From the sequence record NC_054911.1: a stretch of DNA of 64,000 nt, one strand, 5' to 3'. The first letter of the stretch is position 1; every line of letters starts with the position of its first letter. The position numbers and the translations under genes were made by a program. This document shows, in pieces, positions 15,574 to 18,053 of the stretch. The DNA comes from Escherichia phage ECO4. The notes below the pieces were generated by a model. That model ran no database searches. It was not told the DNA's origin and saw nothing but the letters and a program-made list of their open reading frames with translations.

Positions 15574-15604
15574 AAAAAGCCCCAACCTTTTGGTCGGGGC
15601 TAAG
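15574..15604 (-). terminator. intrinsic terminator hairpin plus T-run; copy 1 of a 31-bp direct repeat
   Basis: AAAAAGCCCCAACCTTTTGGTCGGGGCTAAG; 10-bp stem with one mismatch; identical to 16131-16161 except one loop base. Confidence 0.6.
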
Positions 15605-15745: not shown

Positions 15746-16084
15746 CTAAAAGCTCTTTAAGGATAGCTTCATATTTGGAGATAATTCCTTTAACGATATT
15801 TTTTTTTCTTGTGCGACTTTAGGATCTGCTTTAGGAGCAGGTTTACCCGAAGCCTTTGCAAAAGCAGCGCCAGTAGCAACTAAACTTTTCCAGGCCATAC
15901 TAACTGCATTTCCCGTAAATCCTTCCGCTTTCATGTCGCGTGCGAACTGAAATCGCGATTCATCAGAAGCATCTTTGTAAGAATATTTACCCGCTGCAAT
16001 GGCTGCTTTTGCGACAGCTTGAATTTCGGTGCTAGATGCTTCATTTAACACCGCTTCATTTAAAAATTGAGTATATGATTTCAT
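15746..16084 (-). CDS. internal-protein-like protein with capsid-targeting-sequence-like N-terminus, 112 aa
   Basis: N-terminus MKSYTQFLNEA resembles the IP leader MKTYQEF; Ala/Lys-rich; own late promoter and SD. Confidence 0.55.
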   Translation of the reverse strand: MKSYTQFLNEAVLNEASSTEIQAVAKAAIAAGKYSYKDASDESRFQFARDMKAEGFTGNAVSMAWKSLVATGAAFAKASGKPAPKADPKVAQEKKISLKELSPNMKLSLKSF

Positions 16085-16120
16085 CTTATTTCCTGTTTTA
16101 ATTCGTGGATTTAATATACT

Positions 16121-16128
16121 TATTTATA
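16121..16128 (-). promoter_or_regulatory. T4-type late promoter -10 element (TATAAATA on the minus strand)
   Basis: Plus strand TATTTATA, 37 nt upstream of the ATG at 16084. Confidence 0.55.
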
Positions 16129-16130
16129 CT

Positions 16131-16161
16131 AAAAAGCCCCAACCTTTCGGTCGGGGCTAAG
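16131..16161 (-). terminator. intrinsic terminator hairpin plus T-run; copy 2 of the 31-bp direct repeat
   Basis: AAAAAGCCCCAACCTTTCGGTCGGGGCTAAG. Confidence 0.6.
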
Positions 16162-16465
16162 CCTTGCGGCAACCTTGTCGGGGTTCCACCTGCTAAGGCA
16201 AGTGTTTGTACGAAACGCCGGGATTCGAACCCGGTTATCAAGCAGTTGACGCTACTCAATATTTTTAAAAGGCCATATCTCGACCATATCCGAACGTTCC
16301 GTCAAAAACGCTACTCGGTTTACGGCAAAGATATTTCCTCGAATCGATAATTCGGTGCGCCGTTTCTGCTGTGATAGTAAAGAGCCAGAACACAGTAAAA
16401 CTGTGGGAGGAAACTATACTCCAGGGAACATCAGTCCGACGACTTACCGGTAGCGACCCGGTTTC
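16162..16465 (-). ncRNA. candidate stable structured RNA(s) with a tRNA-like T-arm; no credible ORF
   Basis: About 300 bp, GC-richer than flanks, between the 16466 ORF and the terminator; perfect T-arm-like element at 16218-16234; only ORF is antisense. Confidence 0.35.
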
Positions 16466-16816
16466 TTAGTATTCTTTTAAAGCATCAACCTGTTCACGAC
16501 GTTTACGCCATAAATCAATTACTTCATACGCAGATTCAGCATTTCGAATTGGACGGCATTTATATAAAGACTTGTGATTTTGATATTGTGTAGATAACGG
16601 AATTTTATCTAAAAGGTCTTTACGTTCAAAATATTCGTAACCATCTAAACCAAATGAACGATTTTTGAGAAATTGCCAATGACCAAATTCGTTTTCGACA
16701 TAAACATAATCTGCGTGTTGATAAAGCAAATTAGTTTCACGAGATGAGATATGGTTTTCATATTCATTGAAGTAAAATGTTAAATCATGAACTACTAAGT
16801 AAACATTACCTTTCAT
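16466..16816 (-). CDS. hypothetical protein, 116 aa
   Basis: ORF track; directly downstream of the tRNA array. Confidence 0.5.
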   Translation of the reverse strand: MKGNVYLVVHDLTFYFNEYENHISSRETNLLYQHADYVYVENEFGHWQFLKNRSFGLDGYEYFERKDLLDKIPLSTQYQNHKSLYKCRPIRNAESAYEVIDLWRKRREQVDALKEY

Positions 16817-16834: not shown

Positions 16835-16910
16835 TGGTCGAGGCAGTAGGGATCGAACCTACGACCCAGGACTTAGAAGGTCCTTGCTCTTCCTTCTGAG
16901 CTATGCCTCG
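16835..16910 (-). tRNA. tRNA-Arg (anticodon TCT), CCA encoded
   Basis: Manual cloverleaf fold of the reverse complement; anticodon loop CTTCTAA. Confidence 0.8.
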
Positions 16911-16914
16911 TATT

Positions 16915-16989
16915 TGGCGGACGTGATAGGATTCGAACCTATAACCAATCACTTAACAGGCGATCGCTCTGCCATTGAGCTACACATCC
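16915..16989 (-). tRNA. tRNA-Asn (anticodon GTT), CCA encoded
   Basis: Manual fold; anticodon loop CTGTTAA; T-loop TTCGAAT. Confidence 0.65.
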
Positions 16990-16993
16990 AAAT

Positions 16994-17080
16994 TGGTGGG
17001 GAGTGATGGAGTCGAACCACCCGAGTCGCAATGACAATGGATTTACAGTCCACACCGCTACCTCTACGGGATAACTCCCC
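16994..17080 (-). tRNA. tRNA-Tyr (anticodon GTA), type II with long variable arm, CCA encoded
   Basis: Manual fold; anticodon loop CTGTAAA. Confidence 0.65.
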
Positions 17081-17089
17081 AAATTAATT

Positions 17090-17164
17090 TGGTGGCCCTG
17101 GGTGGAATTGAACCACCATCTGGCGATTATGAGTCGCTTGCTTGAACCTTCCAGCTACAGGGCC
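17090..17164 (-). tRNA. tRNA with CAT anticodon (Met, or Ile reading AUA after anticodon modification)
   Basis: Manual fold; anticodon loop CTCATAA; one A-C mismatch in the anticodon stem. Confidence 0.7.
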
Positions 17165-17165
17165 T

Positions 17166-17241
17166 TGGTGCTGATTGACGGAATCGAACCGCCGACCTTC
17201 TCATTACAAGTGAGTTGCTCTACCTACTGAGCTAAATCAGC
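17166..17241 (-). tRNA. tRNA-Thr (anticodon TGT), CCA encoded
   Basis: Manual fold; anticodon loop CTTGTAA. Confidence 0.8.
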
Positions 17242-17246
17242 AAAAC

Positions 17247-17336
17247 TGGCGGAGGCGATAGGATTTGAACCTATGAGTCGCCGGAGCGACTGCCGGTTTT
17301 CAAGACCGGTGCATTAAACCACTCTGCCACGCCTCC
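17247..17336 (-). tRNA. tRNA-Ser (anticodon TGA), type II, CCA encoded
   Basis: Manual fold; anticodon loop CTTGAAA; long variable arm. Confidence 0.8.
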
Positions 17337-17338
17337 AG

Positions 17339-17412
17339 TCTCCGCGGCAGGATTTGAACCTACGACATTCTGCTCCCAAAGCAGACGCTCTACCAAACTG
17401 AGCTACACGGAG
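17339..17412 (-). tRNA. tRNA-Pro (anticodon TGG), CCA not encoded
   Basis: Manual fold; anticodon loop TTTGGGA. Confidence 0.8.
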
Positions 17413-17422
17413 TAAATTAAAT

Positions 17423-17496
<74 letters not shown>

Positions 17497-17501
17497 AAAT
17501 T

Positions 17502-17588
17502 TGGTGCGAGAAGTGGGACTCGAACCCACAAGGAAATCATTCCGCAGCATTTTAAGTGCTGTGCCTTTACCAATTTGACCATTCTCGC
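17502..17588 (-). tRNA. tRNA-Leu (anticodon TAA), type II, CCA encoded
   Basis: Manual fold; anticodon loop CTTAAAA. Confidence 0.8.
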
Positions 17589-17589
17589 G

Positions 17590-17662
17590 CTGGGAATAAA
17601 GGACTCGAACCTTTGCATCCTGGAATCAAAATCCAGTGCCTTACCAACTTGGCTAATTCCCA
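17590..17662 (-). tRNA. tRNA-Gln (anticodon TTG), CCA not fully encoded
   Basis: Manual fold; anticodon loop TTTTGAT. Confidence 0.8.
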
Positions 17663-17759: not shown

Positions 17760-18053
17760 TTACCATTTATGATAATACATATTTACGATGCATTCAAGAC
17801 CCAAAGGATTCTTGAAAATATCATATTCAAGAGGACCTTTTTCTGTTTCAATAAAGAAATCAAAATTTACTGTATTAAATTTACGGTCTTCCTTCACTAA
17901 TTTAACTTGTGAAGATGAACGGTCAATGTAAACCTTTTCAACTTCAAAATATGTTAAAATGCCATAATCATCAATCAAGGCTTTAGCCGCGTCTTGATCA
18001 TATTTATATCCATTTTCAATGGATGATACTTTCGCATAAAGAATCATTATCAA
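17760..18053 (-). CDS. hypothetical protein, 97 aa
   Basis: ORF track. Confidence 0.45.
   Translation of the reverse strand: MIMILYAKVSSIENGYKYDQDAAKALIDDYGILTYFEVEKVYIDRSSSQVKLVKEDRKFNTVNFDFFIETEKGPLEYDIFKNPLGLECIVNMYYHKW

Follow-up and report, generated by a model that had tools for sequence, protein, structure and literature searches.

Two small, stable RNAs, species 1 RNA (gene rnaC) and species 2 RNA (gene rnaD), are known features of the tRNA region of phage T4. Both are reported to lie within a tRNA precursor transcript of ~1.75 kb (PMC2330249, 2008); RNAC was seen on a Northern blot in T4 infection, and both RNAs have been classed as late, with unknown function (PMC9697503, 2022). 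Here, we analyzed the minus strand of a 64,000-nt stretch (the window) of Escherichia phage ECO4 (NC_054911.1), which belongs to the genus Tequatrovirus, i.e. to the T4-like phages. An earlier note, made from the letters of the window alone, had pointed to about 300 bp of structured, untranslated DNA downstream of the tRNA array of this phage. With a probability of roughly 0.9, judged from sequence comparison, this region represents the phage's own orthologues of rnaD and rnaC, followed by a structured trailer and the terminator of the operon. As both genes are textbook features of T4, their presence in a T4-like phage is expected. All positions refer to the window and, unless stated otherwise, to its minus strand.

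Identification of the rnaD and rnaC orthologues

The matching DNA is annotated in the records of T4 (MT984581) and phage Aplg8 (NC_054902) as rnaD ("small, stable RNA; species 2 RNA") and rnaC ("species 1 RNA"), and a three-way alignment was collinear from the rnaD 5′ end through rnaC and the trailer to the terminator (16131–16469). Thus, the leading guess of the earlier note, one or two small stable RNAs as in the tRNA region of T4, was right. The rnaC orthologue is identical to T4 rnaC at 135 of 139 positions, all four differences being structure-preserving or located at unpaired positions, and the gene is 95–99% identical in more than 680 phage records. For rnaD, 98 of 118 positions are identical to T4; the segments 16422–16465 and 16354–16374 show no differences, and the central ~48 nt represent a different module. 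Covariance models for rnaC (R1) and rnaD (R2) gave 157 bits at 16206–16347 and 112 bits at 16354–16465, respectively. Identity and architecture of the two RNAs are considered very nearly certain. The short spacer between them resembles in form the spacer following the 3′ CCA of tRNAs in other genera (CCAAAUUAU followed by CG).

The segment 16100–16500 matched 812 phage records, nearly all from Tequatrovirus and other Tevenvirinae, with Phage NBEco003 as best match (99.8%). The GC content (0.487 at 16150–16449) exceeded that of the flanking protein-coding DNA (0.34–0.42), as had been noticed before, and fell within the range of the tRNA array (0.45–0.53). The only minus-strand open reading frames (ORFs) comprise 42 amino acids (GTG start) and 53 amino acids (TTG start), in line with the earlier judgement that there is no credible ORF. 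The features slightly overrun the bounds initially given for the region (16162–16465): rnaD starts at ~16469, and trailer and terminator extend to 16131.

Searches of Rfam, proposed as a check in the earlier note, revealed no family for either RNA. At gathering thresholds, a scan of the whole window yielded 10 tRNAs only, and a permissive scan of 16050–16600 (E up to 10) gave nothing but sub-threshold noise (isrK, tRNA-Sec, anti-hemB, mascRNA); five divergent rnaD loci also had no family match. The alternative suggestion of a novel structured RNA was therefore correct insofar as neither RNA is contained in Rfam 15, but not with regard to the genes, which are already known.

rnaC is a tRNA-like four-way junction

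Homologues of rnaC were collected from Tequatro-, Karam-, Kanagawa-, Moon-, Teguna- and Gelderlandvirus and from Klebsiella T4-like phages by BLAST, an IMG/VR pattern scan and a covariance model. Since matches to the 14-base patterns were mostly noise (13 of 33 rnaC-pattern loci and most rnaD-pattern loci in the viral collection were chance matches), they were filtered with the covariance models. The rnaC segment folded at −47.9 kcal/mol (z = −4.1 versus shuffled sequences), and the consensus fold, derived from eight genera, is a four-way junction composed of an acceptor stem, a T arm and two additional arms (Table 1). Covariation for this fold is strong. Among 20 distinct sequences, 94.2% of the cells form standard pairs, versus 36–45% when the 3′ partners are slid by one to three columns; compensatory changes were found at 27 of the 50 pairs, and none of 500 shuffles reached the observed values.

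The T-arm-like element was present exactly as first described (CCGGG 16234–16230, TTCGAAT 16229–16223, CCCGG 16222–16218). Its stem occurs in the variants CCGGG/CCCGG, CCAGG/CCUGG, CCUGG/CCAGG and CUUGG/CCAAG. Contrary to the earlier note, an acceptor arm can be assembled around it from the strands CGAUUCG and CGUUUCG; it had been overlooked because its 5′ strand lies ~125 nt upstream of the T arm. The acceptor stem abuts the T arm directly, its pair A3-U70 (T4 and window) is replaced by G3-C70 in 14 of the 20 sequences, and a conserved tandem U·U mismatch is converted to U-A/C-G in the Tegunavirus lineage. The 3′ tail reads U-ACAA in most sequences, including those of the window and T4, and U-CCAA in Klebsiella T4-like phages.

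Arm 1 is followed by a U/A-rich linker. The apical loops of arm 1 (UUGACG) and arm 2 (CGUCAA) form a kissing helix of 6 bp that is 100% paired in the 20 sequences and that changed on both sides independently twice, to UUGAUG/CAUCAA in Tegunavirus and to UUGGCG/CGCCAA in Klebsiella T4-like phages. From the four-way junction and the kissing loop it follows that rnaC keeps the "top half" of a tRNA, with the D/anticodon half replaced by a closed two-arm module. Because the extra arms and the kissing loop have been kept by compensatory changes, rnaC is under selection and not decaying; the term "decayed tRNA" used in the earlier note is fair for its probable origin only.

By the defining tests, rnaC is tRNA-like but not a tRNA. 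It has neither a D arm nor an anticodon arm with a 7-nt loop, the Rfam tRNA model (RF00005, threshold 29 bits) had no match in the region even at E up to 10, and ARAGORN predicted no tRNA there. The tRNA-Sec model reached 16.4 bits versus a threshold of 47 and relied on an internal 5′ strand that fails covariation. An alternative acceptor stem with the internal segment ACGGAACG, complementary to the 3′ strand at eight of eight positions in T4 and the window, was rejected because G·U becomes A·C in Moonvirus, Karamvirus and Kanagawavirus and because the segment is absent in KMB17 and Melville. Transfer-messenger RNA (tmRNA) was neither predicted by ARAGORN nor matched by Rfam in the region, and the 3:70 pair of rnaC is A-U or G-C, unlike the G3·U70 of tmRNA; the model for the Y-RNA-like YrlA (RF02553) had no match in the region at E up to 10.

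Annotations of rnaC in public records vary. In a Karamvirus, 96 nt within rnaC are predicted as "tRNA-Phe" by ARAGORN (locus L017:7816–7911), the record of phage G9062 labels rnaC "tRNA-OTHER", and many records place a "hypothetical protein" coding sequence over rnaC or rnaD, in one case an "Early E3 16 kDa glycoprotein".

A conserved rnaD scaffold carries an exchangeable hairpin

Minimum free energy folding of rnaD alone was uninformative (z = −0.03), and its structure was resolved only by comparative analysis. In the comparative fold, a 5′ hairpin (P1) is followed by a long helix (P2-P3-P4) with an internal loop in which GACUGA lies opposite GAAA. P2 pairs GUCGUCG with CGGCG-C-AC; its pairs CGUC/GGCG are invariant in 29 of 29 distinct sequences, the G-C pair at its end is changed to C-G in eight, and P3 covaries. 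Over the 29 sequences, 91.5% of the cells are paired versus 30–47% when slid, with compensatory changes at 16 of 24 pairs. The core of the helix is invariant (AAGUCGUC...CUGA.G..CCCUG / UCACAGC.GAA..GGCGCA), and the apical hairpin that caps P4 is hypervariable. Unlike rnaC, rnaD does not resemble a tRNA; it combines a conserved scaffold with a hairpin that can be exchanged.

The apical domain of the window, which includes the hairpin CACAG-UUUUA-CUGUG (16405–16391), is common to phage BW-1 and, in diverged form, to the unclassified 150-kb coliphage Esher1. Several unrelated types of apical domain can be distinguished, and their occurrence cuts across phage taxonomy; the type of phage W70, for example, recurs in a Karamvirus. 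Two short motifs were observed in the apical domains: the window-type domain carries UUUCCUCCCAC and that of Esher1 UUCCUCCUCCCAC, both with CCUCC (the anti-Shine-Dalgarno core), and T4-type apical loops have AUCUUU in common, even in a 46-kb phage type.

The elements CUGAUGU and GAAA (CUGAUG...GAAAC) are reminiscent of a hammerhead ribozyme, in which CUGANGA and GAAA cores join three helices. This assignment was rejected, as the covariation-supported fold contains neither a stem I nor a strand with the cleavage site, and the hammerhead models had no match at E up to 10. In the GACUGA/GAAA loop, tandem G·A pairs are possible, but the loop departs from the canonical 3-nt-bulge geometry of a K-turn or box C/D motif.

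Table 1. Positions of RNA elements and associated features in the window
Feature	Position	Strand	Basis and remarks
tRNA array, 10 tRNA genes	16835..17662	−	ARAGORN/Rfam; upstream of rnaD and rnaC on the same strand
rnaD orthologue (T4 species 2 RNA), 116 nt	16354..16469	−	ends by homology with T4 annotation; T4 L001:1998–2115
rnaD P1 hairpin ACCGG, loop GUCGCUA, CCGGU	16446..16462	−	compensatory changes at 5/5 pairs, 29 homologues
rnaD core, 5′ side AAGUCGUCGGACUGAUGUUCCCUG: P2 5′ strand, GACUGA loop, P3 5′ strand, base of P4	16422..16445	−	covariation
rnaD variable apical domain (P4), window/BW-1/Esher1 type	16374..16421	−	differs from T4 type
rnaD core, 3′ side UCACAGCAGAAACGGCGCACC: P4/P3 3′ strands, GAAA loop, P2 3′ strand with bulged C	16354..16374	−	covariation
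Spacer GAAUUA between rnaD and rnaC, 6 nt	16348..16353	−	sequence comparison
rnaC orthologue (T4 species 1 RNA), 139 nt	16209..16347	−	ends by homology with T4 annotation
rnaC acceptor 5′ strand CGAUUCG	16340..16346	−	pairs with 16217–16211, 7 bp
rnaC arm 1, long irregular hairpin, apical loop UUGACG 16305–16300	16270..16339	−	compensatory changes at 15/22 pairs
rnaC arm 2, 10-bp stem, 6-nt loop CGUCAA 16251–16246	16236..16261	−	compensatory changes at 7/10 pairs
rnaC T arm CCGGG, loop UUCGAAU, CCCGG	16218..16234	−	stem covaries
rnaC acceptor 3′ strand CGUUUCG (16217–16211) and conserved tail U-ACAA	16206..16217	−	T4 annotation ends the RNA at 16209
Conserved 3′ trailer, three small hairpins 16204–16187, 16185–16171, 16170–16161	16160..16205	−	fold z = −3.7
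Intrinsic terminator of the tRNA/rnaD/rnaC unit	16131..16158	−	10-bp stem with 7 G-C pairs, GAAA loop, U tract

Distribution and loss of rnaD and rnaC

Relatives of rnaD were identified by running the covariance model on loci from a pattern scan of viral contigs. They were found in Mosig-, Dhaka-, Gapriver-, Karam-, Moon- and Kanagawavirus, in Klebsiella T4-like phages, in Vequintavirinae (W70, phiTE), in Esher1 and in the 46-kb phage type represented by Klebsiella VLCpiS13d and Aeromonas pIS4-A. Every copy found lies on the tRNA strand, most of them 2–8 nt from the neighbouring tRNA. In most phages, among them T4, IME08, ESCO47 and W70, rnaD comes immediately after a tRNA and is not preceded by an ORF. 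The rnaC gene is located between tRNA-Trp and tRNA-Gly in Karamvirus, Gelderlandvirus and Tegunavirus.

Either gene can be missing. In Shigella phage Sf25 (locus L016, 490–530), rnaD is almost fully deleted (GGGTCGC joined to ACAGCAG), with rnaC, trailer and terminator intact, and this phage represents a natural rnaD knockout in a viable Tequatrovirus. Conversely, rnaD is present and rnaC absent in IME08, ESCO47 and Yersinia phage P8 (YenP8). The conserved trailer of IME08 and ESCO47 follows straight on the rnaD 3′ end (...GCGCACCGA joined to ACACTTGCC...), a junction that would fit a clean excision of rnaC or a lineage in which it was never inserted. From these losses we conclude that both RNAs are accessory.

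Outside phages, a blastn search with the 265-nt region gave no hit in 5,426 complete E. coli genomes and 72,556 plasmids. In a pattern scan of bacterial genomes, none of at least 120 loci, among the matches listed, had the 3′ half of the motif.

An adaptive mutation in BW-1 rnaD and the neighbourhood of pseudo-ToxI

In an evolution experiment with three lines of phage BW-1 adapted to E. coli ECOR34, the only convergent mutation was a T to C change at 164264, assigned to rnaD and termed "regulatory" by its authors; virulence, given as relative bacterial growth, went from 0.17 to 0.98 (PMC12685909). We mapped this single-nucleotide polymorphism (SNP) to nucleotide 76 of rnaD, where it represents A to G in the RNA strand and converts CACAG-UUUUA-CUAUG to CACAG-UUUUA-CUGUG. 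It thereby repairs a C·A mismatch in the apical hairpin, which in BW-1 is of the same type as in the window. Ancestral BW-1 rnaD was predicted to adopt a different fold at −8.3 kcal/mol, the evolved form the fold of the window and Esher1 at −14.0 kcal/mol. The window already carries the repaired ("adapted") base (G16393).

In Pectobacterium phage phiTE (locus L166, NC_020201), an rnaD-like element (1195–1309) lies 23 nt upstream of the annotated pseudo-ToxI, adjacent to it and non-overlapping. Pseudo-ToxI, a proven RNA decoy, mimics the type III antitoxin ToxI and neutralises the toxin ToxN, and its expansion leads to escape from abortive infection by ToxIN (PMC3475682). Anti-defence RNAs can therefore be encoded in the tRNA regions of phages; that rnaD is one of them is not thereby demonstrated. 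A search for tandem repeats (minimum score 30) found none in rnaD and rnaC, versus toxin-processed repeats of about 34–45 nt in ToxI-type RNAs. In phiTE itself, the pseudo-ToxI repeats (1310–1430) apparently sit between two halves that resemble tRNA: the segment on the 5′ side (GACTCTATAGCTCAGC) looks like acceptor and D arm, the one on the 3′ side (GGTTCGAACCCGTCCAGTTCCACCA) like T loop, acceptor and CCA. As the two acceptor strands are not complementary, the arrangement looks like a chimera of two tRNA genes that encloses pseudo-ToxI.

Trailer, terminator and neighbouring genes

Trailer and terminator (16208–16131) are identical to T4 at 77 of 78 positions (98.7%). The trailer is kept in IME08 and ESCO47 despite the absence of rnaC, with a compensatory G-C to A-U change in hairpin 1 of ESCO47. 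Possibly, the trailer serves as a processing signal or represents a third RNA element with a function of its own. The terminator noted earlier at 16135–16158 was present (AGCCCCGACC-GAAA-GGTTGGGGCT at 16158–16135, then TTTTT). It is duplicated at 15578–15601 (AGCCCCGACC(A/G)AAAGGTTGGGGCT followed by a T run in both copies), and the two copies flank an ORF of 112 amino acids (15746–16084) that is absent from T4 at that position and looks like a gene cassette inserted along with a terminator copy. A perfect late-promoter motif (TATAAATA, 16128–16121) is located just upstream of this ORF.

An ORF of 116 amino acids (16466–16816) lies between tRNA-Arg and rnaD, with its stop codon overlapping the rnaD 5′ end. 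It is also present in BW-1, NBEco003 and Sf25, and its sole Pfam match, to DUF2654, was weak and sub-threshold. Candidate promoters upstream of the operon are a sigma-70-like sequence (17797–17769) and late-promoter-like motifs (TATAAATA) at 18008–18001 and 18319–18312. Within the tRNA array, tRNA-Tyr (GTA, 16994–17080) scored 30.2 bits versus the Rfam threshold of 29, the other nine tRNAs scoring 59–73 bits, and NBEco003 labels the equivalent of this gene "tRNA-OTHER". Unlike NBEco003 and Aplg8, the window has no tRNA-His between tRNA-Asn and tRNA-Arg.

Discussion

Both RNAs occur always in tRNA arrays, on the tRNA strand and abutting tRNAs. This location would also be expected if they were purely cis-acting parts of the operon, such as folding insulators, processing spacers or 3′-end protectors, accumulating as exonuclease-resistant by-products. 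Their position in Tequatrovirus at the 3′ end of the operon, right before trailer and terminator, the resemblance of the rnaD terminal helices to end-protecting clamps and the dispensability of rnaD in Sf25 and of rnaC in IME08, ESCO47 and YenP8 fit such a role. The conservation observed, however, goes well beyond the needs of a spacer: the P2 core of rnaD is invariant among 29 sequences from unrelated phages, and compensatory change has kept both the T loop of rnaC and its 6-bp kissing loop. Moreover, in Karamvirus and related genera rnaC occupies the middle of the array instead of its 3′ end, and a single base in the apical hairpin of rnaD strongly raised virulence on one host. A purely cis-acting role of both RNAs thus appears unlikely, if well worth considering. 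A narrower variant takes rnaD as a 3′ untranslated region (UTR) that sets stability or translation of the mRNA for the 116-amino-acid ORF. In this case, the ORF might be the real target of the BW-1 SNP, which would act via the encoded protein; the "regulatory" label given by the SNP authors and the start of rnaD at the stop codon of the ORF in the window, BW-1, NBEco003 and Sf25 agree with it. Yet in most phages rnaD follows a tRNA with no ORF upstream, so the scaffold predates the ORF and is independent of it, and T4 rnaD is a discrete stable RNA; we consider the 3′-UTR explanation improbable.

Two further readings concern the nature of the region rather than its mode of action, and both are effectively excluded. 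A perfect T arm and a 7-bp acceptor stem in an RNA that has no D arm or anticodon loop, and that is in part called a tRNA by ARAGORN and some GenBank records, might be the relics of a decaying tRNA pseudogene, the rest of the region being unconstrained intergenic DNA. Such a pseudogene would not be expected to retain 95–99% identity in more than 680 phage records, 27 compensatory pairs that extend to the non-tRNA arms, or a loop-loop interaction preserved through two independent double changes, and the RNA accumulates in T4 infection (PMC9697503); covariation effectively refutes this very improbable reading. The coding sequences annotated over the match in several records and the two minus-strand ORFs would alternatively point to a small protein. 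Comparison of 22 rnaC and 29 rnaD homologues, though, revealed no conserved small protein, as the longest stretch free of stop codons shifted from one frame or strand to another. Indels of 1 and 2 nt separate the homologues, substitutions are compensatory for the RNA helices, and both ORFs have non-ATG starts. A coding function is hardly credible.

For the two RNAs we propose the following route. rnaD and rnaC would be co-transcribed with the tRNAs from the upstream promoters, and the tRNA-processing machinery would excise both, rnaC via RNase P acting on the mimic of acceptor and T arm. rnaD would be released when the flanking tRNA or rnaC units are cut, followed by exonuclease trimming to its terminal helices. 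Maturation along this route is probable. The mature RNAs may then serve as accessory modulators of host interaction, rnaC by imitating the top half of a tRNA and thereby engaging a protein that recognises tRNAs, and rnaD as a stable scaffold presenting a swappable effector hairpin. Among possible roles we favour, as a tentative idea only, that both act as decoy or sponge for a factor of the host that binds or cleaves RNA, e.g. a defence nuclease. A rather unlikely generalization would regard rnaD-type RNAs as widespread, uncatalogued "tRNA-array passengers" of enterobacterial phages, in which an invariant scaffold would provide excision and stability and an exchangeable effector hairpin would counter a strain-specific host factor, e.g. 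an RNA-targeting defence, on the model of phiTE pseudo-ToxI; rnaC would be a second class of passenger, built from a tRNA top half and a kissing-loop body and serving a similar end, and the window would carry the ECOR34-adapted allele.

Several points weigh against this proposal. On laboratory strains, T4 tolerates the deletion of its entire tRNA region (literature of the 1970s), and any function must therefore be conditional. No chromosomal or plasmid RNA similar enough to be mimicked was found in the E. coli genomes and plasmids searched. The lack of an encoded CCA in rnaC (U-ACAA) may make it a poor substrate for RNase P or the CCA enzyme, and the mature ends in this phage were deduced from the T4 annotation alone. 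The BW-1 SNP could act in cis instead, by altering processing or stability of the transcript of the 116-amino-acid ORF. The suggested decoy function draws on one evolution experiment and the association with pseudo-ToxI, and a review from 2010 listed the function of both RNAs as unknown (PMC3014915).

After about 50 years, the present results make the function of rnaC and rnaD more testable. The covariation-proven tRNA-like junction of rnaC with its internal kissing loop allows precise mutants to be defined. The rnaD family is much wider than T4, with a modular apical hairpin and members in the tRNA arrays of unrelated phages. The BW-1 mutation arose during adaptation to an E. coli strain that is only semi-permissive and mends a hairpin pair, which points to a role specific to the host, be it in trans or in cis. 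If rnaC and rnaD were anti-defence decoys, the tRNA arrays of phages would serve as platforms from which RNA counter-defence is expressed. As "hypothetical protein" genes are often placed over the locus in routine annotation, such RNAs would then be systematically missed.

Comparison with known systems

The M3 RNA of phi80 and the C4 RNA of P1/P7 are non-tRNA phage substrates of RNase P. As proposed here for rnaC, these small RNAs have a helix resembling an acceptor stem, through which the tRNA-processing enzyme of the host matures them; they differ from rnaC in lying outside tRNA arrays and in having known or other roles. With pseudo-ToxI of phiTE, rnaD shares the character of a small non-coding RNA in a phage tRNA region with a host-specific effect, where small changes lead to escape or adaptation. 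In contrast to pseudo-ToxI, rnaD and rnaC have no tandem repeats and no convincing similarity to ToxI by eye, the link being one of neighbourhood only.

Compared with tRNAs and tRNA-like domains (the tmRNA domain, YrlA, mascRNA), rnaC has in common a 7-bp acceptor stem stacked on a 5-bp T stem with the loop UUCGAAU, as well as a location inside a tRNA array with tRNA-like spacing, and processing by RNase P is probably common to them. It differs by the absence of a D arm, a 7-nt anticodon loop and an encoded CCA, by the conserved tandem U·U mismatch in the acceptor stem and by two extra arms locked by a kissing loop, and its scores with the tRNA, tmRNA and YrlA models were not near threshold. 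Compared with T4, the window has 10 instead of eight tRNAs in the array, the 116-amino-acid ORF between tRNA-Arg and rnaD where T4 has 1 nt, another module of ~48 nt as apical domain of rnaD, and the 112-amino-acid ORF flanked by the duplicated terminator after the operon. The order of tRNA array, rnaD, 6-nt spacer, rnaC, trailer and terminator on one strand is the same in both phages.

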